Origin: Bilabrum cf. latius
Lineage: Eukaryota
Assembly: GCA_965178125.1 (NCBI GenBank)
Contig: OZ237750.1
Coordinates: forward strand, 62,001 to 126,000
Direction: 5' to 3'
DNA length: 64,000 nucleotides
A program made the position numbers and the translations under genes. The notes beneath the pieces were generated by a model, which saw only the letters and a list, made by a program, of their open reading frames with translations, made no database searches and had not been told where the DNA came from. Shown here piece after piece: positions 8,371-41,044 of this stretch; the stretch's first letter is position 1, and each line of letters starts with the position of its first letter.

Positions 8371-11300
8371 TCACGATATCTACCTCACCGCCCGCTACAT
8401 TGCATCCACCACAAAATCTCCTGCCCGTGCCGCGAGGATCTGCACATTGGTATCAAGCAGCCACCTGCGGATGCGTTCAGCTGCCCCTGGGTTCTTCTTA
8501 GCGTGGGACAGCAAATCTGCAATACGCCCCATCACAGCCGAAATTGGAGTGATCTATCCATCTCCCGCGCCTGCTGTTGGCTTTATCGTGAACGATCTCA
8601 GCGCCACAACGAGCGCAACTACGTGCATCTCGGCAGGACTGCTGTCGGGAAACTCCAGCAGGGTGGCCGTGCCGTGCGTCTCAGCGGCCAGGTGGATCAG
8701 GTTCAACCGAGCTAGAGCAGCCACCAGACTGGCCTTGGTGTATTCTGCTATAGGGTCGTTGGACTCTTCCTCAAACATCCAGACGCTTCCAAGCCGGACA
8801 GCAGCGCGTAGTCCGATGCGAGAGGTGCGCGAGTCGTTGTGTCCTGCCATGCGTGCCAGCTGCACCAGGACCTCGCGCTCTGATGGATCTCCAAGATCTT
8901 CAAGTCGCTATCGCTCCTTCAAAAGAAAAGGTAATGCCTTGGTCGCGCTTGCAACGTCATCAATTGCACCATGAGCTGCAGCTGGTGCGGCCACGCCGGC
9001 TTTTGGAGCATCGCTGGTACTGGCTCCATCAATCGCTAGACCTGCGGCTCCTATTACCTTCGCGCTCGAGGCTCGAACGATGGATGTCTGCACAACCCTA
9101 TTGGGCTCCTGAAAGGGGGTTGTCAGGTTCGGCGGTGGTCGCGAACCAATAACGACACCACGGGATGCGTAGACCCGTGCAGATGCACATGCACCCGCTA
9201 CATTACCTACAACGATAGCACTGCGCTAGCTGACAGCTCTGATGAAAGCTTCGAGTGCTCCACCGGCCGGACTGGATCGTGATGGCAAACCGCAGGTCCA
9301 TTGCAGGTCATCAGGTATATTATCGAAAGAAGCGAGCTTGTCGGCTTCCACGACCTTTCCAAGGCGCCGAAGAGGCAGGCCATTCTCCTTCAATACCGCC
9401 TTCGCGCGCCCACGCAAGACCTTGAACGTTTCATGCGACCGATCGTCGCTCTTGTTCCCGGCAGTATCAGGTTGCGGCTGCTCTTTATCAGTCAAGACAT
9501 CCGCATTCAGATCCTTCAGCCCAGCAGCGCATTTAAAGAGAGCGTCCCGATCCGACATTGATTCGAGCACTTCCTTGATGACCATCTTATCCTACTCTGC
9601 TGAGGCCTCCTGACGTTTTTGTCCGGCAGACATCAGGCAGTCGGGATCGAGCCTGGGCACGCTGCCTTGCTTCTACTTGTCTCGACGTCTCGCCACATCA
9701 GCAGCATCCGGCGGTATCATGCACGACAGCAATGGCATGTCGCCATAATACCATGCAGGGCAAGACACTATGAGAACGTGGCTGAAGCCAGATTCAGGTG
9801 ACTGTGCAAGCCCGAACGCGATTGAGCCGGCTCCGCGTTCAGCAACGAGTGGCACTACAGATCCACCATGCACGCGGAGCTTTGACTCCGACCAGGCCTG
9901 TAACGCGTCCGATACCATAGTTTGGCTACGTAATTGCTTCACAGAGCCAAGTGGCCACTCTAACGGAGCATCAAGCTCGCCGGAGACGACAGAGTGTGAA
10001 CTTTGCGCGTCTACTGCAAAGACTCTAGGCATCATATTGCCAGTTTTGCTCATCTGTTCGATCCAGAAAAAGTCTGAAATCAGCGAGCGGTGCAGATCTA
10101 GCAAGATCTTGCCATGCCGTCTGACCACATGTAGTTCGACATCGGAGGGAAGCTCATGAGAAACAGGTTCCTGTGTCTTCTTTACTGGCTTTCGCACTGA
10201 CACAGGTGACACGTAGACACTGCCGATAGCCTCGAGCTCATCCGCAGTCTCTTCAATTTGCTAATTAGCCAGCCAAGTGGCTTCCTAGCGAACTAGGCCA
10301 TCCCTTTCCATTCCAAACACGAAGTCAAACTCCCGAAGCGAATGCTCTACCACGTGGAGGCAGTGCTTTTTCACGTCTCGAGTCTTGAGCCAAAATGACT
10401 GACCGATGGACTCTATCACAGCTCTAACCGACGATTTTGTTTTGAGGCTGTGAAGTGTGTTTCCTCTATTCATAGATCCCATCACGATAGTCTTCTGCCC
10501 CACTGCTAACATGGGCACCCCGAGCACACGGATAGTCTCCTGGCCGTCGCGCCCAGGCACATCGACCAATGCAAAAGGGGGAATACGTGCACCGACAACA
10601 GCTTGGTACCCCCAAGCCATTGCACTCGCTTCCTATTTCAGAGCCTTGGCTGCCATCACGCTGCTGCCATACCTGGAAGTAGTGCAACCACTAACCTTCA
10701 GGAATAGGCCTCGCTCCGTATCAATTAGTTTGGTAGATCCGCTGCTGCTAGAGCCTTCAGCTGGACCCCCCTGCTTTATACGGATGGAAGAATCGGCAAA
10801 GCTACGTCTGCCGTACAGCACGTCCGCAATCTCTTCCGCTGATCGCTGGACGCTCGCCTCAAAGTCTAGTTCCGTAGATGCGATGCTGGCAGATGCGGTA
10901 CAGGCAGATGTGGCACTAGGGGTTGCGCTAGTAGCACTAGCAGCTGCACCACTGGCGCCTTCATTGATATTATTACCAGCACCGCTGGGTTGTTCAAGCC
11001 AGCGATGCCCCTAGCTGATGGCGGCCGCGGTCTCGTCTGCCTCGGCCGTGGGAGGCCACTTGATTTGGCCGCGTGGTACAGTATCAGGCATTGCAGTAGC
11101 GACGCTCTACAGCTAAAGAGCTCGCCCTGGAGTGTCGAGACTCCATGTCGACGACTATGCACGGCTTCTAACTAAAGTGGCTGCTGTATCACCGGCTCCT
11201 GCCCGCTGGTCGTCGACTCCAGCCCTCGTGCCCCGCAAGACCGATAGCACGTCATCAATGGAAGTCGCACCGAGGGGTCCACCAGAAGGTCTATCATCTG

Positions 11301-14300
11301 CTCCAATGTACGATTCAACACGTTTCCGTGACTTCTTGGGACTGATGACGACATCCACAGCGGTACAGACCGACGCACCAGGAGGCACCTCCGCCTGCAG
11401 CACATCTGCAAGGGGCACTGCTTCGGTCGACTGATCGTCTCTTTCGACCAGCACACGCCCGTCGGAGCTGAGTCGAAGCTAAATTCGTTCGATCTGCTGG
11501 ATCTCGCCAAGGTCCGAATGTGGCTTGATTGACACAGCGAGGCAACCCGGGGTACCAGAGAAACGAATCACAAACGCCGGCCCATCTGTATTTTGAAGCA
11601 TTTCGCTTGCCGCTTCATGGGTCGCAAATGGGACGAAAGCTCCTTCAGGGAGATCGAAGATGCCGTCAATTCGCATGACTCGCTGCAGAGTCTTCTCAAG
11701 CCCCCGTATTTTAAGATGGCATCGGTCGTGCTCAAGCGTATGTGCTCGCGCTTCTTTCTTTGGCGGCGACCTCACCCCAGTGGATGCTGCCACTGCAAAT
11801 GCGTCAGCGTCTATTCCATTCCCGATGAATTCCCGCAACTGATCCGCGGCTCTCTCATGCTAGGCTGTGCCTGAATTCCGGATCTTCCAGTGCCGCAAGT
11901 GGCGGCCTCCCACAATATCAGCGCAAGCATCCAGGGTGGCATTCAGGACAAAGCTGTCAAGTAGGTGCTTGTCAAGTGGCACATAAGGTGCACCCATTGA
12001 TTGGATGGGGTGGCGAGGCGGGCGTTCGACCGCCACCTTACCGACAGATTTCATCTCGTTGTCATCTGCCAGCTGCTGCTGCACCATGGCCTTGCGCCAC
12101 ACGTGTCCGAAGAGGGTGCGGCACTGTTGAATGTGCCTCCAAATCGCCAAGAGACCGTACTGAACAGCATCCAGCCCCCCAATGTAGTATGTTTGCACAG
12201 GCTACTCCCTTAGAGGGACTGCACAGGTAGGAACGCGAGCGATTGTCCACTTGTCGACCTCAGCGGCACGCGAATCCAGCAGACCACGGCCATCTGAGCG
12301 TGAACCCCAGATGTCTGCACTCCGAACCTCACAGACTGCAGCAGCAAAGTCGAGATCGGCCAATTGGAGCATGAACGCATCCTTCTGCTTCTCATCTAGA
12401 GTCTCAAGTCGCCTGCAAATCGCAGCAGGGAGCCTGCTGGAGTCAGTCGGCGCGTCAGGCTCCGATGCACCTGCGGCGGCCAAAACAGCCGCATCATCCC
12501 CTCCAAGCAATCGAGGGTGTATGAAGCGAAAATCGTCGTCCGTTGAAATATCTGCAAATTCTACACCTGAAGTCCCGTGCCGAGTAGCTGTGGCCGCAGC
12601 CAGGGTGCTGCTCTCTTTGCCCCCATGGCCGGGTTTTGGATCCCCGCCAGCTGCAGCAGCTTCAGGAATCGGGCTTGCTTTGCCGAGTTGGTCGCTAGCT
12701 GCGACTGCTACACCAGTCGTAGTCGCTGCTTGCCTAAATCGATCCAACAAGCGTCTCGGCATGAGCCCACAGACAACGTGCCGCACATGGTCTGGTTTCA
12801 GCAAGCAGACCGGAGGTCTCTCTGCGGCGAGTAGTGTCCCGGTTCCTGCCGTGTAAAGAACGCAGGTGCCTTCAGGCCTTGGACGAGACTCTCCACTCTA
12901 AATCAGGCCCATAAGCAGCTTAATGCCCGGGTGGTCGATGGGGTCTTCAAGATCGAGACCGTTGGTCTGGGCAAGCTGAAGGTCGAGCCCGAGCGTGACC
13001 ATCGTCTTTTCAGTGCTCAAACTCGAATGATCGGTGCGTTCTACTCGGTGTCTTGCACGATACAATAGAGGACGGTATCCTCTCAATCGATCAGGCTATG
13101 AGCTCGCCCTTGTGCTCCCTTCCGGTGACCTCCACGTGTCTCTGGCACGCCTTACATCTGCAGTAGACAGGTGAGCGTCGAGCCCATCGATAAGAACAAG
13201 TACATTCTTCCAGCGTTCGAGCTCCTATGCAACCGTATCTAAACTGTCGCAGTTCAAAATACGGGAGTATCTCACGAGCCATTCCCGCTCGTGCACCGTG
13301 TGCACCTCGTGAGTGCCTTGTAGTCGCACGATGTGCCTGAGAATGCCGGCACACACGCATGCCTTCAGTCTACGAATCAGGGCCCGCTCCATCTTACTCC
13401 AAAGGGTTGCATGCGCGCGGGCTCGTTGCACTCTCCCGTGGACTACCTACATGGGAGACCGGATGTGCTGCGCTCCGCCTGCTTGTGTTGCCAACCGCCA
13501 CCCCTCTAGCTCCCAGGCCTCCATAGCATCACCAATGGGCAGCTCTTCAATGGATGTCGCAGCAAGGATGTCACCGACAGGCACAAAAAAGACGCCCCCC
13601 GTGAATCTATCGCGCCAGCGAGCATGCCTACCAACGGCCATCACAACAGAAGTCTTGCCGGACCTTGGCCATCCTAGCAGGCCGATGCACTGAGCGGATC
13701 GCTTGCTAACATCTTCGGGGTCCAGCACGTCCATGATTTGTGTGAGACCGACGCGGTTGTGCGCCAGAAGCGACTGCTCGACCTCAGTGGTAGCGCTCGC
13801 TGGATCGCTTGGACTACCGCTGGTGTGCTGCAATGGGGAGGGCACGAACCACGGCATCCGATCGAGATTTGCGGAGGAAACGCTGGCGTGCCCTGACGAT
13901 TCGCTGCTCCCTGCTCCTGACGAAGGGCCGGGGCCTGAGAGATCCTGGATGAACGCAACTGCTGGGTCTCGCCGAGCGACCGGCTCGCAAAAGACCATAT
14001 CGCCAACAGGATCGCCAGTCTCTGGATCGAACGCCTCCGTGGGTGGTCGAGCTGTGCGGGTCATGGAGGATAAGCCCCTCATCGGATACGAGCTCGCGAC
14101 TGCGATGCTTGACTCAGCCACCCGCCGTGATAGACTGCCGCCTGCGCCTCCTGATGGCCGTCTCTTGTCTGATTGCACCGTTGCTTCCGTTTGTCGGAGC
14201 TCTGCATCACCTATACCGTACTATTCGATCCGCGAGGGGTCTGACCCTGCACTCGCGGCTGCCACTGCCGGCCCACCTGAATTCGACCGCATTACCACTA

Positions 14301-17300
14301 TTGGGCCATCAAGCGGGGCAGTCTTCTCAAAATGTAGCACATCATTTGGTGGCGTCTTTTCCGGAAACAACAGTCCCACTGATAACGGCTCCGGATCCAG
14401 TCCGTTCTTAAGTGCGGTCTTCTCGTCATGTCCCTTGGAAAATTGATGTATACTGCCACTGCCCTTGAGGTGGACCCCCACTGCCAGAGCAGGCCGCTGT
14501 GCAAGACCCGATAAATGCTGCATGAAAATTTGCTTGAACCGTGGGCTGCTTCCGTTGGCCAAGCACTTGAGGTTTGCGGTCAGCTGCTCAAGCTTTGTCG
14601 CGCAATCGGACCGCAGGTGTTCGATCGACTCGAATGGGGCCACTGGCTAGCCCCTAAAAACGCGCCTGGCCTACTCAAGCAGGGCAAGCGACTCTGGCAG
14701 ACTTGGTTCACGCAACCTAGGGCTGCTGCTTCCTAGTGTGTCGAAGTTGATCTGCACCCCGTCCATGCCCTCCAGCAGTCTCCTTGGTAGCAGTCCGCAC
14801 ATCACGTGGCGGTACGGACTACCAAGCTCCCCAGGCAGCTTGTTACTGCCCAGTACAGTCCCTGTCCTAGCGGTGAATAGAACAGACGTGCCCCCGGGCA
14901 GTCGGTGAGCCATGAGATCGCCGATGAGCTGCACTATGGGATGCTGCGTGGAGTCCTGCAGAACCTGCTGGGTAGCTCCAGAGCCGTCTCCCTGCAGCTT
15001 CGAAGGATCCAAGAGAACTGTTGCCCCATCAACGATCACTAGCGCGCGCCTCTGCATCTCCATGGTGTTGCCAAGGGCCTTGAAGGAGCTAGCTGCCTCG
15101 ACAGCTGTCAGCCGCTCCGCCCACGCTATTGCATGATCGTGCGATCCACGCACACCTTCTTTCCCCAGGGCAGTCATGCGCTACACGTGACGGCGAATAC
15201 CGGAACCGATGCATTCCTTTGCCCTCTTTAGGAGCTAGTGTTCCATGAAGGACCATATCGTGCCGTGCTGGTGCCCCCGAGTCGAGTCGCCTGCAGCACT
15301 GCTACTGAAGGAGCCTTGCGCTGCGCCAGAGCTAAAGTGACCTTGCGCCAAGTCACCCACCGGCAAGTAGTAGACCCCTCCGCTGTATAGGCAGGAGCGT
15401 ACCGCTTGATTGTACATGGCTACGGCACCAAGCGTCTTCCCGGATCCTTGCGGACCAACCAGACCGACGAGCTGACTGGACCCAGAGATCGGCGCCAGCA
15501 GCAGCGCCGCCTTTTCAAGCCCATCGGAATTGACCAAGCATGCACTCCCAACCTCGTCGCCTGGGATTTTACCCCACAATACTGAAGGGAAGCTCTGCGG
15601 CGCCGAGAGGATTGGCCTGGTCTACTCTTCGGGTTCTATAGCTGCAGGTGCGCTGCCAGGCAACTGCAGACTTGGTAGCAGCCGCTTGCCTAACGCATTT
15701 GGCATGGAATACTCACGTAAACTGCTGCCTTCTTCGCTAACTAGCCTGTCAATGGAATCTAGAACCTCCTGTGGCTCTAAATCACGCCTGCTATCACGCA
15801 AGTGTGAGGCACCTAGCCCAAGAATTAGTCTGGCAGATTCCGGGTCTCTACACAGGGAAACTGCATGCCCTAGAGAAAGCCTGTCAGCCTTGGAAATGTC
15901 GAAACGTAGCAATTGGCTGGCTTCTACAGTTTGAAGCAGTTTTTGCTGCTCAGTCTCTGGAAGAGCGTGCAGAACTTGGCGTGGAAGCAGTCCGCACATC
16001 ACGTGGCGGTACGGACTACCAAGCTCCCCAGGCAGCTTGTTACTGCCCAGCACAGTCCCTGTCCTAGCGGTAAATAGAACAGACGTGCCCCCGGGCAGTC
16101 GGTGAGCCATGAGATCGCCGATGAGCTGCACTATGGGATGCTGCGTGGGATCAACAAGCGAGCTAACGTGCTACGCTGCCGCGGCTTCGTGTGGATCTTG
16201 AGCAAGGGGATCAAGCCTAGCATCAGCGCCATCCACCAAGACAAGAACGTTTTTCCATCCTTCAAGTTCTTCTCCCACCTCTCTAAAGGAGTCGCTGCTC
16301 GTAATGCGGTCGACGCGAGACGCCCAGGTTGCCTACAGACGGTGCGCCTCCGCAGGAGACAGGTGAGGGGACCCGCTAGATCGCAGCACAGCCAGGAAGT
16401 TCCTGACTCCAAGACTTACAACGGATTTCAGTCGCTGAAGAAGGTGATGCTCCATGCTTGACCAGAAGCCATTTACATCACTGGATCTGGTGCTATCGCC
16501 AGCCATAGGTGTCTCGGCATCTGCTGCACCGGCGCCAGAGCTGGCACCTGCCCCGCTGTGTGGGTGCGGGGAGGAGTCGGGTACCCCAACTGCAGCAGCT
16601 GCCATGCCAACGCCTTCATGCTCCATTTCTGCGCCGTAGCTATCAGGCGCGGGGAAGTCCTCAAGTCTCACAGCCGCTGCAATGTCACCAATCGGCAGGA
16701 AGAAGACGCCGCCGGGATGGGTCTCTAAGTTGACAGCATGCCGAGCCATCTTCAGGGCTCCGATGGTTTTGCCGGCAGATACAGGGCCAATCAGACCAGT
16801 CAATTCCGCAGTCCTTCCGACTGTACTGGCACTCAACAGCGTCTACACGGTTCCGAGGCCCCCTTTGTTCAGCAGCAGGATATTGTCGGTCGTCGACCCC
16901 TTGATTTCCCCCTCTTTAGGAATGAAGGCTGGCGCGAAGCTGTCTGGGCCAAGCATTGCGGCAGGGGCATCTATTCCTGCAGCAGCAGCAGCAGCAGCAC
17001 GGGCGCAAGCCTGCAGTCTCGCTTGCGCTTCAAACAGCCCTATGGCGTGGAGAGATGCTGGCCGAATGCTCACGTCGCCTTCCGTCCGCTAGGCAATCAA
17101 GTTCATGACGCCCTCGTGCTTGTAGGTGTACAACTGCCAAGAGGGCATGATAAGGGCCGGTTGTTTGTCTTCCTCATTCTCGCCTTCCTCTACCTTCCCT
17201 TCCCCCAGCTGGCTCGAGAGCACTTCCTCTTGAGCCGCTGTCAACGCTGCATTGACTCTACCAAACGATCTCGGCAGCTTGGAAGCAAGGGCATGAACAA

Positions 17301-17963
17301 AAGCACTGACAGTCTCTTCTGCAACACCGCCCGTGTCGATTGCGATTACAAAGGGTACTCCGGCAGCGCACGCGCGCAGACCGATGCTCGCTGCTCCATG
17401 CTCCTGGTGCACGATAAGAATAGAGGCGGGCATGCGTTGCTGCTCCATCCCATGCCCCGCTCTTCCATTCAGACCACGTCCGATTGCTCTCGCTAGCTGC
17501 TCACCCGTGACTGTATCATACCCCGCTGGGTTTGGCTGCGCCGAGTGCAGGTGGATGCACGGCTCCTGGCCTTCGTCAGCCAGAACAGGAGCAGACAGCA
17601 CGACCACATCTGACTTGCCACCGCAGATTGCTCCGGCAATCGATGGTAGCGTTGCAGTTTCGATCCGCTTGCAGGGAAGGCACCCGGCAACCAGTGCTGA
17701 TTTCCATGTGTGATCTTGGCCCGTTGATTCCGTGCCCCAGTACGACACATTCATTTCAAAGCTACCCTCAGCAGCTTGTCCAGTCCAATGTGCACCATAA
17801 AGGTCCGCTTCGGCTTGCTATGTATCCAGACTTATCATAGCTTCTTGTTCCGATTGCAACCCGTAATTATCAGGTGGCAAGAGTACTGGTGCCCCCATTG
17901 GCAAACCGAAGTCGTCTACGAGCTAGAACACGGACTTTGCGCCAGCCGGAGTCATCCCAGGTA
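8371..17963 (-). CDS. 3' part of giant multidomain protein: degenerate CHAT-like domain, three P-loop NTPase (STAND/NB-ARC-like) modules, SH2-like domain, possible degenerate kinase-like segment
   Basis: About 20 listed ORFs from 17089-17754 to 8554-8865 lie in one frame, and the gaps I translated contain only TAG. First TGA at 8371-8373. Walker A: GPVSAGKT, GPQGSGKT, GWPRSGKT, each followed by GGV(F/Y)(F/Y)xP(I/V)GD. Walker B-like VLVL(V/I)DG and LVIVDG. SH2-like AASEMLQNTDGPAFVIRFSGTPGCLAVS (~11540-11620). Confidence 0.8.
14789..14951. repeat. 163-bp near-identical direct repeat, copy 1 (copy 2 at 15986-16148)
   Basis: Both copies encode TQHPIVQLIGDLMAHRLPGGTSVLFTARTGTVLGSNKLPGELGSPYRHVMCGLL; two substitutions seen by eye. 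Confidence 0.9.
15986..16148. repeat. 163-bp near-identical direct repeat, copy 2
   Basis: Matches 14789-14951. Confidence 0.9.
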
Positions 17964-18135
17964 TTAGCAGGTCTGGGGTTACAATCAGTAAGACCGGAAC
18001 TGTAGAAACTGGGATTGATTTGCGTGAAGGCCGACTCATCTTCCCGAGGGTACGCCGAAGATACTGATCTCGGCAGTGCTCAAGAAGACACGTACTACAA
18101 TGTAGTGTAGTTCTGAGTCAGCTTGCAAAAGTTTT
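17964..18135 (+). repeat. Split direct repeat A1
   Basis: TTAGCAGGTCTGGGG...GCAAAAGTTTT, identical by eye to 24085-24256. Confidence 0.95.
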
Positions 18136-18446
18136 AAAAGTTTTCGAGAGGCCTATCGGCTGGCTCCAAGGGCAATCGGGATGTGTTCGTCTCAGGTTGA
18201 TCCCTATAAGGAAAAAGTAAACATAACCCATGTCAAACGCACGCTGGTATATGCACTTATTGCATAGTTGCTGCCAAAGGTCTGCTGCGAGTGCATTTCA
18301 CCCGGCGCTGCTTCATAACGCACACGGCACGTCAAGGCACAACACTGCGCAACTCGACTTATGCTTGTATTGCATCCCATAAACCATAGCAAGGCCGCTA
18401 GTGAATCGTAAATCAAGATTATCATTAACATTGTGTCGCAAACGGG

Positions 18447-21400
18447 GCCTGCCACTGGCCACCTTGCTGCTGTGGGCAGCTTGGCGAGCCTGGGTGGGTT
18501 GCTGCGCGTCGTCCACTTGACGTCCGCTTGCCTTTGTCTGTGATGGCGCCTTGATGCGCCTGCCACTGGCCACCTTGCTGCTGTGGGCAGCTTGGCGAGC
18601 CTGGGTGGGTTGCTGCGCGTTGTCCATTTGACGTCCGCTTGCTTTTGTCTGTGATGGCGCCTTGATGCGCCTGCCGCTGGCCGCCTTGCTGCTGTGGGCA
18701 GCTTGGCGAGCCTGGGTGGGTTGCTGCGCGTCGTCCATTTGACGTCCGCTTGCTTTTGTCTGTGATGGCGCCTGACTGCGCCTGCCACTGGCCGCCTTTG
18801 CTGCTGTGGGCAGCTTGGCGAGCCTGGGTGGGTTGCTGCGCGTCGTCCACTTGACGTCCGCTTGCCTTTGTCTGTGATGGCGCCTTGATGCGCCTGCCAC
18901 TGGCCACCTTGCTGCTGTGCGCAGCTTGGCGAGCCTGGGTGGGTTGCTGCGCGTCGTCCATTTGACGTCCGCTTGCCTTTGTCTGTGATGGCGCCTTGAT
19001 GCGCCTGCCACTGGCCACCTTTGCTGCTGTGGGCAGCTTGGCGAGCCTGGGTGGGTTGCTGCGCGTCGTCCATTTGACGTCCGCTTGCCTTTGTCTGTGA
19101 TGGCGCCTTGATGCGCCTGCCACTGGCCGCCTTTGCTGCTGTGGGCAGCTTGGCGAGCCTGGGTGGGTTGCTGCGCGTTGTCCATTTGACGTCCGCTTGC
19201 CTTTGTCTGTGATGGCGCCTTGATGCGCCTGCCGCTGGCCGCCTTGCTGCTGTGGGCAGCTTGGCGAGCCTGGGTGGGTTGCTGCGTGTCGTCCATTTGA
19301 CGTCCGCTTGCCTTTGTCTTTGATGGCGCCTTGATGCGCCTGCCACTGGCCGCCTTTGCTGCTGTGGGCAGCTTGGCGAGCCTGGGTGGGTTGCTGCGCG
19401 TCGTCCATTTGACGTCCGCTTGCCTTAGTTTGGGATGGCGCCTGACTGCGCCTGCCACTGGACGCCTTTGCTGCTGTGGGCAGCTTGGCGAGCCTGGGTG
19501 GGTTGCTGCGCGTCGTCCATTTGACGTCCGCTTGCTTTTGTCTGTGATGGCGCCTTGATGCGCCTGCCACTGGCCGCCTTTGCTGCTGTGGGCAGCTTGG
19601 CGAGCCTGGGTGGGTTGCTGCGCGTCGTCCATTTGGCGTCCGCTTGCCTTTGTCTATGATGGCGCCTTGATGCGCCTGCCACTGGCCGCCTTTGCTGCTG
19701 TGGGCAGCTTGGCGAGCCTGGGTGGGTTGCTGCGCGTCGTCCATTTGACGTCCGCTTGCCTTTGTCTGTGATGGCGCCTTGAAGCGTCTGCCATTGGCCA
19801 CCTTGCTGCTGTGCGCAGCTTGGCGAGCCTGGGTGGGTTGCTGCGCGTCGTCCATATGACGTCCGCTTGCCTTTGTCTGTGATGGCGCCTTGATGCGCCT
19901 GCCACTGGCCACCTTTGCTGCTGTGGGCAGCTTGGCGAGCCTGGGTGGGTTGCTGCGCATCGTCCATTTGACGTCCGCTTGCCTTTGTCTGTGATGGCGC
20001 CTGAATGCGCCTGCCACTGGACGCCTTTGCTGCTGTGCGCAGCTTGGCGAGCCTGGGTGGGTTGCTGCGCGTCGTCCATTTGACGTCCGCTTGCCTTTGT
20101 CTGTGATGGCGCCTGACTGCGCCTGCCACTGGCCGCCTTTGCTGCTGTGGGCAGCTTGGCGAGCCTGGGTGGGTTGCTGCGCGTTGTCCATTTGACGTCC
20201 GCTTGCCTTTGTCTGTGATGGCTCCTTGAAGCGTCTGCCATTGGCCACCTTGCTGCTGTGCGCAGCTTGGCGAGCCTGGGTGGGTTGCTGCGCGTCGTCC
20301 ATATGACGTCCGCTTGCCTTTGTCTGTGATGGCGCCTGACTGCGCCTGCCACTGGCCACCTTGCTGCTGTGGGCAGCTTGGCGAGCCTGGGTGGGTTGCT
20401 GCGCGTCGTCCATTTGACGTCCGCTTGCCTTTGTCTGTGATGGCGCCTTGATGCGCCTGCCACTGGCCACCTTTGCTGCTGTGCGCAGCTTGGCGAGCCT
20501 GGGTGGGTTGCTGCGCGTCGTCCATTTGACGTCCGCTTGCCTTTGTCTGTGATGGCGCCTGACTGCGCCTGCCACTGGCCGCCTTTGCTGCTGTGCGCAG
20601 CTTGGCGAGCCTGGGTGGGTTGCTGCGCGTCGTCCATTTGACGTCCGCTTGCCTTTGTCTGTGATGGCGCCTTGATGCGCCTGCCACTGGACGCCTTCGC
20701 TGCTGTGGGCAGCTTGGCGAGCCTGGGTGGGTTGCTGCGCGTCGTCCATTTGACGTCCGCTTGCCTTTGTCTGTGATGGCGCCTTGATGCGCCTGCCACT
20801 GGCCGCCTTTGCTGCTGTGCGCAGCTTGGCGAGCCTGGGTGGGTTGCTGCGCGTCGTCCATTTGACGTCCGCTTGCTTTTGTCTGTGATGACGCCTTGAT
20901 GTGCCTGCCACTGGCCGCCTTTGCTGCTGTGGGCAGCTTGGCGAGCCTGGGTGGGTTGCTGCGCGTCGTCCATTTGACGTCCGCTTGCTTTGTCTGTGAT
21001 GGCGCCTTGATGCGCCTGCCACTGGACGCCTTTGCTGCTGTGCGCAGCTTGGCGAGCCTGGGTGGGTTGCTGCGCGTCGTCCATTTGACGTCCGCTAGCC
21101 TTTGTCTGTGATGGCGCCTTGATGCGCCTGCCACTGGACGCCTTCGCTGCTGTGGGCAGCTTGGCGAGCCTGGGTGGGTTGCTGCGCGTCGTCCATTTGA
21201 CGTCCGCTTGCTTTTGTCTGTGATGGCGCCTTGATGCGCCTGCCACTGGCCGCCTTTGCTGCTGTGGGCAGCTTGGCGAGCCTGGGTGGGTTGCTGCGCG
21301 TCGTCCATTTGACGTCCGCTAGCCTTTGTCTGTGATGGCGCCTTGATGCGCCTGCCACTGGCCGCCTTTGCTGCTGTGGGCAGCTTGGCGAGCCTGGGTG

Positions 21401-21533
21401 GGTTGCTGCGCGTCGTCCATTTGACGTCCGCTTGCCTTTGTCTGTGATGGCGCCTTGATGCGCCTGCCACTGGCCGCCTTTGCTGCTGTGGGCAGCTTGG
21501 CGAGCCTGGGTGGGTTGCTGCGAGTCGTCCATT
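18447..21533. repeat. Minisatellite, 111/112-bp unit, about 27-28 copies
   Basis: Unit GCCTGCCACTGGCCGCCTTTGCTGCTGTGGGCAGCTTGGCGAGCCTGGGTGGGTTGCTGCGCGTCGTCCATTTGACGTCCGCTTGCCTTTGTCTGTGATGGCGCCTTGATGC, head-to-tail with few variants. Confidence 0.97.
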
Positions 21534-21573
21534 GGATAACTTAAGGTTGTGTTACGATGCTCAACCGCGACAT

Positions 21574-22022
21574 CACTAGCCGCCAAGGAGGAGATGACCA
21601 CCCCCAAGGCAGCCTGTGTGAGCAATTGCACCATATGCACCATGAAACAGCTCGACCAGAAGGTCTTGTCATAGCGACAGCACTAGCTGCCAAGGAGGAG
21701 ATGACCACCCCCAAGGCAGCCTGTATGAGCAATTGCACCATATGCACCATGAAACAGCTCGACCAGGATGTCTTGTCATAGCGACAGCACTAGCTGCCAA
21801 GGAGGCGATGACCACCCCCAAGGCAGCCTGTGTGAGCAATTGCACCATGTGCACCATTGGACAGCTCGACCAGGATGTCTTGTCATAGCGACAGCACTAG
21901 CTGCCAAGGAGGAGATGACCATCCCCAATGCAGCCTGTGTGAGCAATTGCACCATATGCACCATGAAACAGCTCGACCAGAAGGTCTTGTCATAGCGATA
22001 GCACTGGCGGCCAAGGAGGAGA
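21574..22022. repeat. Minisatellite, 107-bp unit, first block (~4 copies)
   Basis: Unit CACTAGCTGCCAAGGAGGAGATGACCACCCCCAAGGCAGCCTGTGTGAGCAATTGCACCATATGCACCATGAAACAGCTCGACCAGAAGGTCTTGTCATAGCGACAG. Confidence 0.95.
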
Positions 22023-22838
22023 ACATCTACTAGCGGCGCGACGACAGCACCCCCAGCGCGAGGCGCAGAAGGGCCAGGTCACAGGGCAGCCGCGGTAGTA
22101 GGAAGCAGCACGAACATCAGCACCGACGTAGCAGCAGCAAGGCGGCAGAGTGCCTCCGACGTTCGCACTAGAAGGAGAGGTCCGACTAGGTCACGGCGAA
22201 GGGGGACTCATACTGCCTGTCAAATCCACGGGACCATCCCTTGATGCTAGAGTTAGCCTTGGGGGGACCCGGGAGGAGGCTTCGAGGAATTAGTCGTCCG
22301 CTGTAAAGCAGGCCACCCAGGAGCGAACTCTCGTAGCCCGTCAGGGAGCCAGAGCAGAGCACACCGAGAGGGCTATTGTGGAGCAACGTAGCGGCATGAA
22401 CTCGCAGAGCAGCGCACTGAGGAGCATGCAAGTGCACAGTGGGGACAAACTGTATTGGATGCATCCAGCTACATTCTCAATCTGCACCACGCAGTGTTGT
22501 CCGGTGGCGGAGGTGTTGCACGTCTTACGCAAGTATGGCGCGCCTTTCCACTGGTACCTCGAGCCTGACGCAGCGATCAAGGCTCCACGAGACGGTGGGG
22601 ACGCCGACTGGCACGAAGGTACCTCAACGCAATCAGCCCTGTTTACTGAGATTCGCAAGCAGGTTGAGGCAGGATTCATTCGAGTTACATCGAAACCAGC
22701 AACATCAGATATGCCGAGAGCCTTGCTGGTCCGGAAGTACGCTTGGAAGCTCAGCCCCGGCGTGGGCATGCAGCGACGCATAGTACCAAGTGAATAGGCC
22801 AGGATCGTCGTGGATTTCTCGGGACTACGACCACATGC
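22021..22838 (+). pseudogene. Truncated reverse-transcriptase N-terminal fragment embedded in the 107-bp array
   Basis: Open frame (TAG as sense) reading ...VLHVLRKYGAPF...SALFTEIRKQVEAGFIRVTSKP...LLVRK...PSE*ARIVVDFSGL. This matches the 'EI..l...G.I' and 'R.vvD.s.L' motifs that open retroelement RTs. The frame is cut off by the repeat before any YxDD. Confidence 0.65.
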
Positions 22839-23700
22839 AAAGGAGGAGATGACCACCCCCAAGGCAGCCTGTGTGAGCAATTGCACCATGTGCACCATGA
22901 AACAGCTCGACCAGAAGGTCTTGTCATAGCGACAGCACTAGCCGCCAAGGAGGAGATGACCACCCCCAAGGCAGCCTGTGTGAGCAATTGCACCATGTGC
23001 ACCATTGGACAGCTCGACCAGGATGTCTTGTCATAGCGACAGCACTAGCTGCCAAGGAGGAGATGACCATCCCCAATGCAGCCTGTGTGAGCAATTGCAC
23101 CATGTACACCATTGAACAGCTCGACCAGAAGGTCTTGTCATAGCGACAGCACTAGCTGCCAAGGAGGAGATGACAACCCCCAAGGCAGCCTGTGTGAGCA
23201 ATTGCACCATGTACACCATTGAACAGCTCGACCAGGAGGTCTTGTCATAGCGACAGCACTAGCTGCCAAGGAGGAGATGACCACCCCCAAGGCAGCCTGT
23301 GTGAGCAATTGCACCATGTACACCATTGAACAGCTCGACCAGGAGGTCTTGTCATAGTAACAGCACTAGCTGCCAAGGAGGAGATGCCCATCCCCAAGGC
23401 AGCCTGTGTGAGCAATTGCACCATTTGCAGGGACGCAGCTCGACAACAGAGTTTTGTAAGTTCCGGATGAACAGCACTAGCAACGACAGGACAAAATGAG
23501 CAGCACCATATGCACCATTTGTAAGCTAGACTGGGAGGTCCTGTCGAATGGATAGCACTAACAACGACGAAAGCGATGATCACTCCCGCAGCAACCTGTG
23601 TACTTGAATGCATCTTAGGCACCAGTATTAAGCTCGGCGAGGATTTCGTATATAATTGACATCTCTGGTTGCGATCAACGACTAGGCTCATCGGTGGTAC
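22839..23700. repeat. Minisatellite, 107-bp unit, second block (~5.5 clean copies, then 2-3 degenerate)
   Basis: Same unit resumes at AAGGAGGAGATGACC and decays after ~23430; right boundary approximate. Confidence 0.9.
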
Positions 23701-23931
23701 GGTGAATGCTGCAGATCAGCCACCATAACCTGACAGTTCAACACAACAGTCGATGCAAGTGGCTCCACGGTGGTCACCACCGACAGATGACTACCACTAG
23801 TGGCAAGCAAAGCGGACAGCAGCCATCGTGGCGACTATATCCAAGGAGCGGATTAATGTGACCCACAGGTCAGTATGCGTAGGGCGGCAAGCCGCAGTGG
23901 CCACAGGTGGCCAAATCTGCGGGTCAGTACG

Positions 23932-24256
23932 GCGCAGGCTGCACCAGCAGCCGGGTCCCCTTGTGGCGCCACGGGTGGTCAACCGCCCGAGGAGCCGGGG
24001 CCCAGCACGCCCTCGCATTTTCTAGCAACCCTAACCGGAGGTTCTAGAACTGATTCGATGTAACGTACAAATCAATGTCAGTTTTTAGCAGGTCTGGGGT
24101 TACAATCAGTAAGACCGGAACTGTAGAAACTGGGATTGATTTGCGTGAAGGCCGACTCATCTTCCCGAGGGTACGCCGAAGATACTGATCTCGGCAGTGC
24201 TCAAGAAGACACGTACTACAATGTAGTGTAGTTCTGAGTCAGCTTGCAAAAGTTTT
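23932..24256 (+). repeat. Abutting split direct repeats B1 (23932-24084) and A2 (24085-24256)
   Basis: Junction ...ATGTCAGTTT|TTAGCAGG... is the element's right end joined exactly to its left end. Confidence 0.95.
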
Positions 24257-24811
24257 CCCGCCCACCCGCAAAGTGTAGAGGAAGTGCAGAGAGGAGTGTC
24301 ATGACTCAAGTCCCTGAATGATGGGGCAAAGAGCCCACGCGTACCACAGCAATTTGGAGCGCGAGGACAGCCCAGGGCCTGCGATTTGGCGCAACGATAG
24401 CGCATATCTTGCAGGGCAGGGATCATGACTCAACACCCAGAGGTACAGGGGTCGCCACCGGACACCGAAGGGCGGCACCCAGGATCGCGCGTGAGTTTGT
24501 CGGCATCCTCAGCCAACAAATCACACCGCGGGACAGTCAGCAGAAGACGGGGTCGTCATCTCAACGAGAGGGCGGCACCCAGGCATGGATAGTTTTCTTC
24601 CGGAACATTTTCGGTCTTTATAGTCCAGGCCATGCAGACACTCTGAGGGATTTGGATGTAGGGGTCGTCACCTCACTGAGAGGGCGGCACCGAGCTCGGG
24701 TGACTTTTCCCAGCCACTGGCTGGGTGTTTAGATCTTCGAGCGCATCTGCTTACATTGTATGATTGAATGATACCTCCGGTGGGTAGGCACTTTGCTTAC
24801 CCGCGTCAGGC

Positions 24812-24964
24812 GCGCAGGCTGCACCAGCAGCCGGGTCCCCTTGTGGCGCCACGGGTGGTCAACCGCCCGAGGAGCCGGGGCCCAGCACGCCCTCGCATTT
24901 TCTAGCAACCCTAACCGGAGGTTCTAGAACTGATTCGATGTAACGTACAAATCAATGTCAGTTT
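24812..24964 (+). repeat. Split direct repeat B2
   Basis: GCGCAGGCTGCACC...AATGTCAGTTT, identical by eye to 23932-24084. Confidence 0.95.
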
Positions 24965-27470
24965 CATGCGGAACCCAAAGCTCCCAGGTCTTATCCTTCG
25001 CCAGCTGCGTCTTGCGGCATTCGACCAGAGGCTCCTGGGCTTCTAGCTGACGAAAGGTTATCTAGCTTGGCCATGGCAGTCCAATCTCGTTGGCATTCGT
25101 GATACTCACACGATACCCACTTTGTCCCGACCGATCACCGTTTTCAATTCGAATGCGCACGCCCCACAGATATCGCAGTGCTTCACATCCGACGCGAACA
25201 GCCCCATGGCAATGCATGCCCTCCTGGAGGCCCTGCACGAACTGGCTCACGGGGTCCTCGTGAGCAATCTCGGATTTAAATGGCTCAATGCCGTCCTGCT
25301 CCATGGAGCCGTACACCTTGCCGACAGGGTTGAAATCAGTGGACCCTTCTGCGTCAGGGGTGGACGCTATGGTCTCGAGGCGAGTTCTAAATCTGACGCA
25401 GTCATGAGGCACAAATGATTCTGCCCCAGTGAACAGCTGGGCCACTCCAGCGAACCTCTTAGGTTGCTCGTCTCCTTTCGGACCCCTGCGACAGGAAGTA
25501 CCAGCGGAGGCGGCACCACCTTTGGCCGCACCATGCGAGGATTTGCCTCCTGACCCGGCACCCCCTTCGGCCGCACCATGCGAGGATTTGCCTCCTGACC
25601 CGGCACCATGGGCAGATGTGGTGCAGTCTTGTTTAGAATCGGCAGCAGCTATGCTGCCCCATCGACGAAATTCATAAAGTATTTGTGATGCCAGCTTATC
25701 TTCTTGCGACTGACTTGCTGGCGTCTCTTTACATTCCTACTCGATTGAGTAGATGGTCCCTCTGGTATCGGAATGACCGCTCTCGTCTGCACCACTGGTG
25801 ACCTACCAGTCCGGAGTATCACCTTGGCCCGACCCGGCCTGACCTTTAGCTGCAGTGGATTTAATAGCCGTCTCCCAATCAGTCGGGGTGCTGCCTTCTT
25901 CGCCACCAGAGGGCTCTACTGCGTTGTCCCCCTGATCAGGACTGTCGAAGATAAGCAGGATGCCCCCGTCACTTCTAGCAATCTCGTGTACCGTGGTCGC
26001 AAGCGTCGCGAGATCATGACACTGGAGCACACGTCGCAGGTTAGAGACACAGCGCCGCAGCTGCTCAATAATGGCCGGGGCCTTACCCGAATCCTGTTTG
26101 CGTAGATGGTCCAGGCGGTGCAGGTGGCGCAAGATGCCGGCGCAGATGCAGGACCGGGTGCGAAGCACTGCCTTTGCCGATCTCGATGGCACGCTGGTTT
26201 GCAATTCTTCGGGGGGACCACCTCTTCGAAATATCATGGCCTCCAGGTCGTCTCTAGCGCTAAATCCCCACCTCCTAGCTTCCAAAGCCTCGATCGCCGG
26301 CATGTCGCTTCGGCCATCCACTTCAGCCGCCAAATCATCGCATATATCTTGTAACGACACAAAATAAATGCCCCCGCCGAAGTGCTCTCGCTCTCTGAAG
26401 TAACGCGCTACTTCAAGCGCAGCTGTGGTCTTGCCTGACTTCTGATCACCAGACAGCCCCACGCAACCACCCATCATTAGTTGTTGGATGATGGCGTGCA
26501 TGCCAGTAGCAGTGCTCTATCGGATCTTTTTGAGGGTATCAAAGCCGTGCACCGTCAAATAGAGCGGTGCTGGGGCCAGCCAGGGCTTCCTGTCGGCGCA
26601 GTCCACGATGAGGAGGTTGCGAGCAGCTCGACATGACTCTTCATGCTGGCGTGTCATCTCAGGCAGCGCCAGATGTTGGCTCTCCATAGCTGTAACAGTC
26701 GCTACATACTGCTTGTGTATCTCCTCGCTTTTTCTTTCCGTGATCCCCGTGCTCAGACCCTCAGGCGGCGGGAACAAGTGGATACCCTCGGAGTGCCGCT
26801 TTCCACCGGACCCTCGAAATTGACGCTTTGCGACGTCAAATGCGTGCGACACCTCTGTGCCAAGCGCTAAGCAGTAGTAAAACTCTTCTGCATACTTCGT
26901 GCATAAATCGTCAAACGCTTGTATACTGAAGCCCAGCGTCACTGCCGCTCGCCCTGTGCGCTCGAGACTCTACTTCATCGCCGTCTACAACTCCTTCGCC
27001 AGCCCATACGAGTTACAAGCAGCGAGAAAAATCAAGTCAGGGCACGCTCTACCGCCACGTTCAATGGTCTTGTAGAAATCCTCTACGGTTATCTCTTGAA
27101 CGTTGCCATCTTGATCCTCGAGTAAAATACAAGCTTTGTCACCATGCGCGGCAACATGGAGCACAATGCATGCGCATCTAAGATCTGCAGGTTCCTCTTG
27201 GACGGCTTTGTCTCCGCCTGACTAGAGGAATCGTGGACAACTCTCGAAAACGTGTTGAATATCTTTGGAGGACGGCAAGTTACCGATGGTAGAAGCAACA
27301 ACAATCGGCTTTCCAGATCTCTCTAAGACAGAATATAAACGGTTTATTTCAAAACGAGATCGCATAATGTTCAGCGTTTTCGCTTCACCTACACAAGCAT
27401 TGGCTCCTCCTAAACCATCTTTTCCGGAGCCATAGTAAGGGTCAGCTGTAACATACCACAAACCCTGCAT
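24965..27470 (-). CDS. 5' part of the giant multidomain protein: CHAT (caspase-fold) protease domain plus first P-loop NTPase; start codon tentative
   Basis: One frame through TAGs. CHAT motifs VLHVAAHG (His) and LIFLAACNS (Cys), then AEEFYYCLALGTEVSHAFDVAK. Walker A GDQKSGKT followed by FGGGIYFVSL; Walker B-like LLIFD. Confidence 0.8.
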
Positions 27471-28202
27471 ACTTGCCTGTATTGCTTGGCAATTCTATGG
27501 GCTCTGCGCAAACAAGGGTCTAAAATTCGGCAAGTATGCTGGACATAGGATTTTTGGATACGACTGTCCAATGCAACACTTTGCTTGTTCGACCTCACAC
27601 TATTCGTAGCACGACCGATAAAGACCAGATCTATGTATTGACCAATTGCTGTATGCTATGATTTGTGCAATACCGTTCAAAACGGTGGTAAAGTATGAAG
27701 ATCGGGGTCTTCGACGGGCGGTCTGGCCCAGTGCTGCAACAGATCGTTACTAATAAATTTAACATGATTTTCTGATTTTTGTTGGCACCTGCTCGCAACA
27801 GGGGAGGAGTGTGGTTTCTTTACCCTACAAATTATTCTGGTATTCTGGTATTCTGGAGTAGTACCACGGTCAGGTTGATGGGGTGTTCGGCCCTGGTTCA
27901 CTGCCTACCACTGCAGCACTGCAACCGCGTGGCTCCGACGGGCGATTGATCCTTCGTGTTCGTGCGGGTATTTACCCTCGTTCCTGTTCCCCTACTCCAG
28001 AACTGACAGACAAGGTGGCTGTGGAGATGACTCGCCGAGAGTCATCGCTGCAGTCACGTGGTCTTCAGGCAGAGTGGGTCTCCGGTGACTGGGCCAGTCG
28101 AACTTCAGAGGAGAAGGGCAAGATAAGGAAGGCATGGGCGCACCATGGCCTACGTCTTGAATCTCACCCACAACCTCTGGAGAAGGACAGGCGTGGAGTC
28201 GC

Positions 28203-37937: not shown

Positions 37938-40773
37938 TCATTTCCAACCGCCAGCGCTGTCGTCACTGTCAGAATCGACGTCCACGACCGAAGCGGGTAT
38001 GGCGATCATCGCGCTCTTCATAGCGGGGTTCTATTCTGGATTCATAAACACCCCAGTATTCCTCCTCTGCAGCTTCTTTCGTCGGAATCCGCCCGACGAG
38101 TCGCTATCACTGCTGCTATCGCTGCCGTCTCCTGCCCTGCTTGCTGCCTCTTTCTGCAACCGGGCTCGGGTGCTCGCTGGCACGCGAGGGGTGGTCAGCG
38201 TCAGCAGAGAGCCCGTCCCCAGCTTGGCCAGCTTCGGCCGGGACACCATTGACTCTCCCCCGTCCGAATCGGAATCAGAATCCGAGTCCCCTCCTTTTCC
38301 GGGGCCGCCCCTCGGCCCCTGCCCCTTCCCCTTCGACTCCTTCGCGTTGCTGAGAGGGCTGGCCCTGGCCGGTGGAGGCGGCGCGGACTTGCCCGCGCCA
38401 TTGCCTCCGTTCTCCTCGTCGTTACCACCGCCCTCGCTGTCGCTGTCTTTGTCTGCACCCCCTCCTTTGGTCTGGCCCGCGGCCTCCCCTTGCTTGCTGT
38501 CGTCTTCATCTTCATTCTCGTCCTCCTCAAGGATCGCCAGCCGAGCCAGTGCAGCCTGTCTCTTTGCCTCTCTCGAGTCTGCCTTCTTGCCCTTGCTCTT
38601 CGACTTGGAGGCATCATCGTCATCGCCTTCGCCTAGTGCGCCCTTCTTGCCCTTGCCTTTCTTGCCACCCGACTTTGTCTTGGCCGGCTTCGCAGCTGCC
38701 GCTTTCCTAGCCGATGGAGGCGCCTTGCGCACGACAGAGCCCTGCTCATCCTCGTCATCATCCTCGTCGTCGTCGCTCGCATCTTTCTTGAGGACCAGAG
38801 ACACGGAGGACTTCGTGCGGCCCTTCTTGAACTGGCTGAACCTGGCAGCCAGCTGGTCGGCGAAGGAGAGCTGGGCCGTGTGCCCCTTGCCCTTCTTCTT
38901 GTCCTTCTTCTTCTTCTTGTCCTTCTTCTCGCCGTCCTTGTTCTTGCTCTTGCTCACCTGGCGCAGCTTCTTGCCAGCCTAAATCTCCGCCAACAGACCC
39001 ATCGTGCCCCCAGACGCAGGGGCCTCTGCCTCAGCCTCTGCCTCGGCCTGGTTCTCCTCGTTTCCGGCCAGCTGGTCCCCTGCATCCCCGTAGGCCCCGC
39101 CGCCCTTCCCCATGTCCTCGCCAGGCCCGCCGACTCCCTGAGTGCCCCACCCAGCACCCGCATCCTGCGCGTTCGCAACACCCATGCCCGGCATCTCACC
39201 TGCCTGCGCCACGCCCATACCTACAGGCAGCTCGTACCCTGGGTCGGCCCCGGGCTGAGCCCCTGGATATGGGGCCCCTCCAGGGGGCGCCCCGTTGGGG
39301 GGAGGCACCCCAGGGGGGGGCACCCCTGGGGGAGGCACGGCGAGAGCGGGAGCGGGCGCGCCCCAGCTCTAGGTCTGGTGCCCCGGAGGGGGCTGTGACG
39401 AGGGCGGTGGTGGGGGATTGGTTCCGTTAGCTTGCGGTGCCGCGGCTGCGGGAGTGCCTGCCGGCGGCTGCTGTTGTAGTTGTGGTTGTGGGGCGGCCGC
39501 TGGTCTTGCAGGCTGCACGTCCTCAATGGAGAGCACTCCATTCCCCCGCATCATCTCGTTGAGCGCCGTGGGCAGGAGACTCGTGAGGTCCACCTGCGTG
39601 TCGGCAGCGTACCCAACTCCTCCATCAGACGAGGATCCTGCCACTCCGCCGCCACCACCGCCCACCGCGGCCGCTGTCTCCTGGCCCGACCACGTCATAT
39701 CCGCCGTGTTGGGCAGGTTGAGGTTCTGGGGCAGCTCCAGCGCCTCTGCCTCCTTTGCCTGTGGCCTGAAGGAGTAGTCCAGGTCGGAGACGTCCCTTCC
39801 TGCCCGCTGGTCGATGGTCGCGGGTCGGGCGCCGAGGACCCCCCCTTGCTTGGCGGCGCGGCGCCCCTGACCCTCGTCGTCCTGGTCCCCGTCGAGGTTC
39901 GAGCCCCTGCCCGCCTTGCTGGGGTAGTGCTTGTACGGGTTCTGCTTCGAGTTGAAGAGCAGGACCGACGCGCCGCTGCGGAGGGCGGAACGGGCCGGGA
40001 ATAGGCCCAGGCCGCTGGGAGCATCCTCGCCAGGGGGGTCTGTGCGGTCATCCACCAGCCTCGTGCGGCGGAAGAGGTCCCTTAGCTGTCTGCGTGCCTT
40101 TGGGTTGAACGACTCCTCGTCCTCGCCCAGCATCATGGGCTCCTCGCCGTCGTCCTCGCGGAGGGTCGCGGGGTCTGCCCCGGGGGCAGCGTGCGTGATG
40201 GGAGGCATGTCCATGGGCTCGTCCGAGTATACCTGGCCTTCCTAAAGAGATCGAAACGGTGCCGGCTTAGTAAGGCTCGGGGGGTATCGGCTGGATGCAA
40301 ACAGCGCGGTGGAGAGGTTGGGCCGCGCCGCGATGCGCTACACCTTGCGCTCTGCCGCTGCGATCCGACCCTGCAGGGAGCTGAGCCGCTGGCGCTCCTC
40401 GGACACCTGCGATCATGGCATGAGCAGGGACACAAAGTGCGTGCATACGGCTCAATGGGTTCGACCCCTGATCTGGATCGCAACCAGGCCTCGCTAGCCG
40501 AAACACAACTTACACGATTGCGGATTCTGGTAAAGATTTGCGTGCTTGTTCGCTCCAAGTGTCTCAGAGAGTCGTACAATAGCCTACTAATATCTTCATC
40601 GGCCACGTCATGCAGTGCAACTGCGAGCAGATACAGGTTTAGGTACGGCAACTGGGTATGCCAATGCGTGGGCAAGTCAGATGGGGTGCCACCTAAGATT
40701 AATATCGACAACCCGACGGACAGAATGAAATCTTACCAGGCTGAGATACTACCTACGAGCACCGAATAGACAT
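37938..40773 (-). CDS. WASH1: WASH complex subunit 1 (WAHD domain, Pro-rich region, WH2, acidic-Trp C-terminus)
   Basis: Probable exons 40773-40737, 40620-40514, 40406-37938. WAHD-like DSLRHLERTSTQIFTRIRNRV, ASSRYP, SVLLFNSKQNPYKHY, YSFRP, LPQNLNLPNTADMTW. WH2 LLAEI*AGKKLRQV. End DSDSDDSAGGWK-TGA is reached only through the TAG at 38031. Confidence 0.88.
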
Positions 40774-41044
40774 GGTGCCCCCTTCTTCAGCAGAAAGGAG
40801 TGCATTCCAGGAAATTTCGATGCTTGTGCTTAAGTGCACGTTATCTTCCAACGTATATCAGAGTGAAAATCCAAGCAATCCACTCACAAACCGAGCCTCT
40901 GCTTCACCGTACAGCAAGTCCAAGCCTAGTCACTCCTAAGGGGTGAATGACCCGAGTATTTACTACCGGCTGCCAGCATCACAACTTGTAACTGACGGCC
41001 CCCGCAAGGTATATCCTCCTACTTTAAGCAACGAGGGCCTCAGC

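Follow-up and report, generated by a model that had tools for sequence, protein, structure and literature searches.

The element TOC1 is about 5.7 kb long, contains internal 76-bp tandem repeats, has a short unique stretch separating the repeats at its right end and makes no fixed target duplication. In Chlamydomonas reinhardtii it represents the non-autonomous version of the tyrosine recombinase (YR) retroelement TOC3 (PMC5613634), the two forming a pair in which an active non-autonomous split-repeat element accompanies an autonomous YR element. We have analysed a comparable element, located at positions 17964 to 24964 of a 64,000-nucleotide stretch of DNA (hereafter the window) from Bilabrum cf. 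latius (GenBank assembly GCA_965178125.1, contig OZ237750.1, positions 62,001 to 126,000 of the forward strand). This element belongs to a Ngaro-type family as a TOC1-like passenger, TOC1 being its closest precedent. It is present in nine near-identical copies that share their anatomy and termini, and in the window it has inserted with an exact fit and without target duplication. We consider it highly probable (approximately 0.9) that it derives from a Ngaro-type YR retrotransposon, is young and non-autonomous, and has been retro-mobilised in trans by intact relatives, here termed helpers. The passenger-helper pair represents a second clear system of the TOC1/TOC3 type, in a different YR group, and is young enough to be caught moving. 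It differs from TOC1 in that tandem arrays make up about 60% of the passenger, and from TOC elements as members of the PAT group, which has a methyltransferase (MT) (PMC4157794), in that the helper lacks this domain.

The Ngaro elements of Cafeteria burkhardae resemble this system in their A1-[ORFs]-B1A2B2 layout (ORF, open reading frame), in encoding ORF1, reverse transcriptase/RNase H (RT/RH) and a YR with HxxR and Tyr, in their length of 6-8 kb, in the occurrence of 5'-deleted variants and solo-type remnants, and in having a GC-rich protist as host (PMC8547959). However, the variants described in that species are ORF1-deleted but coding (PMC8547959), whereas the form reported here is gene-less and satellite-filled; the accessible text of PMC8547959 contains no mention that we could find of a spacer or of readthrough. 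In DIRS1-like elements the YR likewise integrates an end-joined intermediate without target duplication (PMC3266345), and the DIRS-1 proteins, including the RT, have been tested for action in trans (PMC7192593). DIRS1 differs from the window element in its inverted repeats, internal complementary region (ICR) and MT domain; its recombination takes place where junction and target match over 3 bp (PMC3266345), and no such match is evident here. Inverted pairs within the window element do not exceed 25 nt, at 72-85% complementarity, and its ends carry direct repeats only. The gene order of VIPER is gag-YR-RT, in contrast to ORF1-RT/RH-YR in the helper. VIPER and SIRE of trypanosomes share with our system split direct repeats, the lack of an MT and the existence of a non-autonomous derivative, although SIRE is only about 430 bp long and consists of the A2-B2 region (PMC6681497).

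Anatomy of the passenger and its full-length relatives

An earlier note, made from the letters of the window, had read the locus as a non-autonomous split-direct-repeat YR retrotransposon, and the anatomy, the existence of full-length partners and the shared termini all agree with that reading. All features of the element are given on the plus strand. The left split direct repeat A1 (17964..18135) starts with TTAGCAG and is identical to A2 (24085..24256) at 172/172 bp, while B1 (23932..24084) is identical to B2 (24812..24964) at 153/153 bp. B2 forms the right end and finishes in GTCAGTTT, an end common to all 14 copies listed; the left end of A1 is found in 12 of these and is missing from two 5'-truncated copies. 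The internal B1|A2 join equals the right end plus the left end (GTCAGTTT|TTAGCAG, with exactly five T) and copies the end-to-end (circle) junction, as had been noticed before, and the element contains neither an intact RT nor an intact YR. Downstream of A1 lies a unique leader, u1 (18136..18446), present in eight copies at 96-100% identity, specific to the non-autonomous form and absent from the full-length copies. This is followed by a tandem array of 27.6 units of 111/112 bp (18447..21533), the size of which ranges from 15 to 44 units in sister copies. A second, 107-bp tandem array, confined to this element family, is present as a first block of 4.3 units (21567..22022) and a second block of 5.5 units (22836..23429). 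These blocks flank an 813-bp pol remnant (22023..22835) that extends from the pre-RT region to the first RT motifs, without YMDD, and is 95.8% identical to positions L039:4323-5135 of a full-length copy. Differences between the remnant and the full-length copies are distributed 7/13/14 by codon position, which argues that it is under no coding constraint. The final 79 bp of a further unique stretch, u3 (23430..23931), match the sequence that intervenes between YR and B1 in the full-length copies. Relatives of the 112-bp unit (67-76%; L115:3987-8173, L114:5079-6005 and L116:8247-8451) also form 83/114-bp satellite arrays, with arrays on C22 and C43, and are found inside another multi-copy split-repeat element with 39-bp arrays.

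The spacer of 555 bp between A2 and B2 (24257..24811) had been taken as a sign of derivation. This interpretation did not hold: the full-length copies carry a 552-bp spacer that is 84% identical, and all five sister elements examined, from four families, have spacers as well (16, 30, 80, 107 and 1,283 bp), so the spacer is a family trait and not a product of decay.

Three full-length relatives of 7.6 kb (L039-L041; two on contig C38 and one on C30) are 99.95% identical to one another and encode, on one strand, ORF1, RT/RNase H and YR, followed by B1-A2-spacer-B2. ORF1 (857 aa) has no Pfam family, occupies the gag position and has a basic RG-rich tail; its gag identity is positional. The RT/RNase H (919 aa) contains YMDD and matches Pfam RVT_1 (E 2.3e-6), and the YR (398 aa) possesses the R, HxxR and Y residues and matches Phage_integrase (E 2.7e-4). 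All three frames are open in two of the three copies, the third having a 1-bp insertion that shifts the frame within the RT. There is no Pfam match to an MT in the helper, the MT region of P0128 is absent in alignment, and a regular-expression search for the MT motif was negative; since it has no MT, the layout is that of Ngaro in the scheme of PMC4157794. Passenger and helper are identical over the outermost 21 bp at the A end and the outermost 64 bp at the B end, with 90% identity over A as a whole. Outside this genome, searches of JGI metagenomes and IMG/VR gave no confirmed loci, and protein searches returned a few fragments at 74-83% identity and otherwise matches of no more than 39%. Among the 20 RT matches looked up, one was from Closterium; no named Cafeteria Ngaro protein was found among these or in other protein searches.

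Genomic copies, insertion sites and mobilisation

The earlier note had made its interpretation dependent on further genomic copies with the same termini, and such copies exist. A B-A query gave 41 matches in the genome. Nine of the copies are long non-autonomous forms, located on C16 (the window), C37, C30, C20, C18, C13 (two) and C22 (two); the C22 pair shares its flanks and therefore reflects one event, so that the nine copies represent eight different sites. A 2.5-kb 5' fragment of the full-length form is present on C5, with older fragments on C34. There are also two deletion derivatives, one on C14 and the other a 206-bp mini-element on C38 (L042:4597-4802), in which the entire A is fused to the final 34 bp of B with the outer ends intact. 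The insertion is indeed recent, as had been supposed from the identity of the repeats. The window copy differs from that on C37 at 8/7,001 bases, all of them within the array, and when arrays are excluded seven long copies show 0-7 differences from the window copy in 2,659 bases, the C22 form being more divergent.

The absence of a target duplication at the window copy (0 bp) was borne out. Among 13 copies scored, with one of the C22 pair dropped, eight have a duplication of 0 bp, four of 1-2 bp and one of 7 bp. The 7-bp case (L036:1535-1541 and 8413-8419; G000:C13 ~993140-1000018) lacks the first 24 bp of A1. This duplication at a 5'-truncated copy hints at a second integration route, for example the capture of linear cDNA at a staggered break.

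Exact removal of the element from the window rejoins a minus-strand host frame, as predicted, with 927 codons upstream and 3,196 codons downstream; removal of one or two further bases leaves no more than 151 open codons on either side. This frame is open only because TAG is read as a sense codon (see below). Exact excision yields the longest open frame at five of nine loci (weakly at L041), and the remaining four have no long frame at any offset. Two of the five T at the junction fall to one end and three to the other (2+3); in 9/13 of the listed copies whose left end is intact or present as a fragment, both flanks are non-T. The sister family F4 contributes a complete 6.9-kb element (L043:977-7860) that is nested in reversed orientation in an A1 repeat, a target whose empty site is known, with zero bases gained or lost. 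On account of the split junction T, the exact rejoining of host frames and this nested insertion, our data suggest that the crossover requires no matching bases in the target. Such zero-homology sites constrain how the recombinase cuts, in comparison with the 3-bp match described for DIRS1.

We envisage that the passenger has kept the cis-acting ends A1 ... B1-A2-spacer-B2, having lost gag, most of pol and YR and become filled with unstable tandem repeats, which may come from relatives of the 112-bp unit elsewhere in the genome. According to the established split-repeat model, RT provided in trans would copy RNA extending from A1 to B2 into cDNA, with the internal B1|A2 join as template for both ends plus the end-to-end junction, and the YR would recombine this junction into a new site. 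To judge from its sequence, the helper would produce this RT as an ORF1-Pol fusion, by readthrough of a single in-frame UAA after ORF1. The passenger delimits the sequences needed in cis by a Ngaro-type element.

Several observations weigh against this reading of the element and its mobilisation. The RVT_1 and Phage_integrase matches are both below the Pfam curated cut-offs, and a search of the PDB with the helper YR gave no match. At 10% divergence from the passenger in A and 16% in the spacer, the three full-length copies are its cousins and not its direct parent, and no RT-bearing copy closer to the passenger was present among 29 matches. A circle or cDNA intermediate is expected from the split-repeat model, none having been observed here, and DIRS-1 cDNA was found to be mostly linear (PMC7192593). 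Net gains or losses in multiples of 3 bp would escape the frame test. At the L040 site, an 88-bp array, the join fits the unit at its first bases and is then followed by an adjacent 44-bp deletion; we rejected this array as an empty site, the exact join extending for only 6 bp on each side with the deletion alongside. The empty allele of the window locus proposed in the earlier note was not found in contigs of four sequencing runs, which show presence and not absence, and contigs over the right junction in the window reach 25-29 letters into the element against a bridging rule of 31.

These points must be set beside the alternatives. The family could be PAT/TOC-like (DIRS group) rather than Ngaro-like, given that the passenger resembles TOC1 and that split repeats occur in both groups (PMC4157794). 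We think this unlikely, because the helper has no MT after RH and its RT lies outside the clade of MT-bearing sequences: in a quick tree of 93 RTs the helper family falls in a clade of five (support 96), with long branches and without named reference sequences, and this lies outside a 58-row clade (support 90) that contains all 31 MT-motif-positive matches. It is very improbable that the passenger moves as DNA, through YR excision and re-integration in the manner of Cryptons and without reverse transcription. Such movement would fit the absence of a target duplication and a passenger without RT, but the passenger has retained the complete B1-A2-spacer-B2 block, which is known to serve reverse transcription, A1=A2 and B1=B2 are homogenised inside each subfamily though subfamilies are 10% apart, and the partner encodes RT/RH. 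An assembly artefact, in which repeats were collapsed or duplicated around the 3-kb satellite, seems to us the most remote of these explanations, even though the array length varies among copies, the C22 pair has common flanks and no read record covers the whole element. Identical structures are present at eight unrelated sites, and misassembly, which had been named as a possible objection, is also countered by short-read contigs of four runs from three studies (run X1 may be the source sample) that carry element junctions and the flanks of other copies. The u3|B1 join is found in contigs of all four runs and the B1|A2 join in two (X6 and X7); the flanks of the C37, C18 and C38 copies are present as loose ends, and the depth of the spacer is approximately 5-13 times host depth, a value that is not a copy number. 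We therefore retain the interpretation of a passenger retro-mobilised in trans.

The ORF1-pol junction and the host genetic code

Single in-frame stops between gag and pol are known from the long terminal repeat (LTR) retrotransposons Tj1/Tosmo and from murine leukaemia virus (MuLV) (PMC10085805, PMC8310308). The established readthrough signals are UGA-CUAG, an 8-nt purine spacer and a 3' structure (PMC10085805, PMC8310308), and Tj1/Tosmo, MuLV and alphaviruses have in common UGA-CU(AG), a purine-rich 8-nt spacer and RNA structure no more than about 150 nt away. The helper ORF1 terminates at TAA, directly followed by pol in the same frame (TAA-AAG). We surveyed this junction in 18 of 23 YR matches, which were retrieved, plus five elements found earlier. 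In four of seven families with readable frames a long ORF1 is followed by a single in-frame stop and pol. The stop contexts are TAA-AAG in the window family, TGA-CAT in the family named after C9, TGA-AGG in F4 and TGA-CTAG in F5; the UGA of the sister families is represented by L126:2530-2649, L130:7413-7532, L127:3754-3873 and L107:4323. Among the remaining families the ORF1 and pol frames overlap in two, and a single ORF of 1,511 aa is present in one. The decayed elements C32 and C36 also contain an in-frame TGA-C. Families with the in-frame stop occupy two deep RT clades, each of which also contains an overlapping family. In the C1 family, the C3 copy has what looks like an in-frame stop; this was discarded, as it results from a 1-bp deletion in an A run, and 10 of 11 readable copies of that family overlap instead. 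The C9 family has, in addition, an in-frame 96-bp tandem array within its pol ORF (L107:4931-5753), and a further YR family (L095-L106), with about 12 near-identical full-length copies and the 1,283-bp A2-B2 spacer, has an ORF1/pol overlap of 272 nt.

Predicted folding distinguishes these families: three of the four with the in-frame stop have a stem-loop downstream of it, that of the window family being the weakest. Strong folding of the 120 nt 3' of the stop is predicted for F4 and F5 (z -6.9, -5.2 and -5.8), with one strong hairpin in F4 and two hairpins after UGA-CUAG in F5. Of 36 predicted pairs, 9 differ between the two F5 subfamilies without any loss of pairing, one via a double change, although the comparison comprises two distinct sequences, from which the structure itself was predicted. 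In four of five elements the segment at the stop comes first of 31 for folding; it comes 28th in C9, the family of which shows no downstream structure (z +0.75 and -0.32). In the window family an 8-nt purine spacer leads into a long-range stem. The z of the segment is -3.18 at 142 nt, a length picked after inspection of a 300-nt fold, but -0.04 for 120 nt and -0.09 for 300 nt.

We infer that the pattern of in-frame stops across four families is a signature of programmed Gag-Pol readthrough. At slightly better than even odds, this protist's Ngaro-type YR elements make RT as a Gag-Pol fusion via readthrough of UGA or UAA with a 3' stem-loop, across two deep RT clades of a host that translates UAG as Gln, while their YR joins homology-free targets and mobilises satellite-filled passengers that outnumber the helpers. 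It is possible, though less likely, that the helper pol is instead expressed from a spliced or subgenomic RNA, from a non-AUG start or by re-initiation. Consistent with this, the stop of the window family is UAA with A as the next base, which favours readthrough poorly, and an AG lies within 3 nt and a GUG codon within six codons after the stop; the C9 family is without downstream structure, and two families overlap their frames. On the other hand, the helper pol has no in-frame AUG before codon 112, and yet its codons 13-106 show conservation with the C32 family (33%, E 8e-15), which is unalignable elsewhere. One family carries UGA-CUAG, two have strong hairpins after the stop, and the rank of the stop segment in four of five elements likewise favours readthrough. 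Splicing or a non-AUG start is possible, and likeliest for the UAA-A of the window family. For the families as a group we prefer readthrough. The systems in which it has been tested experimentally are integrase-type LTR elements and viruses, whereas ours are YR elements known from their sequences, one family uses UAA and the host reads UAG as Gln. We found no report of readthrough in YR elements in a literature search that did not extend to the main reviews of the group, and no 'stop codon' passage in the accessible portions of PMC3783388 or PMC3266345. Expression of pol in YR retrotransposons has hardly been studied, and a stop with UGA-CUAG and hairpins is amenable to a direct reporter test; these elements also show the behaviour of recoding signals where the host release factor no longer stops at UAG.

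Under the standard code the long frames in the window and element, which are interrupted solely by TAG, looked broken until TAG was taken as sense. Counted by eye, approximately 57 of 148 genomic kinase matches have an in-frame TAG, with TAA in two and TGA in three. When the 30 best kinases are aligned, Q is enriched 4.7-fold and E 2.2-fold in the 17 well-filled TAG columns, which resemble CAG and CAA columns while differing from those of Leu, Tyr and Trp; the overall profile correlation of TAG columns is similar for Q (0.68) and E (0.69) and does not tell them apart. In an RT of 83% identity from another source, one of the two TAG positions is occupied by Q and the second by P. A search with Rfam located a tRNA gene whose anticodon is CUA (L143:1501-1573; G000:C23:907607-907679); its acceptor stem is nearer to host tRNA-Tyr than to tRNA-Gln, so that charging with Gln is presumptive. 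The 4,123-codon host gene interrupted by the element contains no TAA, 64 CAA and 42 TAG, and TAA terminates most YR ORFs. On the basis of the kinase alignments, the tRNA-CUA gene and the distribution of TAA, the host code most plausibly has TAG as Gln with TAA and TGA as stops. The kinase alignment and the codon counts of the host gene led us to reject TAG as Leu and TAA as a sense codon. This code is known from Iotanema and three ciliates (PMC11687900). We found no stramenopile case in a literature search. In an INO1 tree the present host is on a long branch, in a polytomy with Cafeteria sequences. The genome is that of an intron-poor, GC-rich protist; contig C111, with clustered tRNA genes, is probably its mitochondrial genome.

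The interrupted host gene and its neighbours

The gene into which the element has inserted (8371-27746, minus strand) comprises about 4,100 codons with four to five P-loop repeats, and such elements are thereby shown to land in coding exons. Its 5' part (24965..27746) encodes a weak CHAT-protease-like domain (E 0.0018) and the first P-loop, and contains a GT-AG intron of 95 nt (27504-27598) that is skipped in runs X6 and X7. The 3' part (8371..17963; 3,196 codons) encodes repeated P-loop (NACHT-like) domains (Pfam NACHT, E 1.8e-7) and has 33 TAG, 0 TAA and 0 TGA in frame. Other stretches we take, by eye, to be SH2-like and CLU-like. A paralog sought in the genome as a proxy for the empty site was not found, the gene being single-copy. 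The ends of the element on the strand of the host gene are not GT-AG, and the gene is therefore probably disrupted by the insertion. It also contains an internal duplication of 167 bp, 98% identical (14785-14951 and 15982-16148).

Elsewhere in the window, positions 37938-47674 contain ordinary host genes, encoding WASH1-like, inositol-3-phosphate synthase and SMC3-like proteins, and positions 60451-61041 consist of coding-like tandem repeats of 33/66/132 bp with lower GC.

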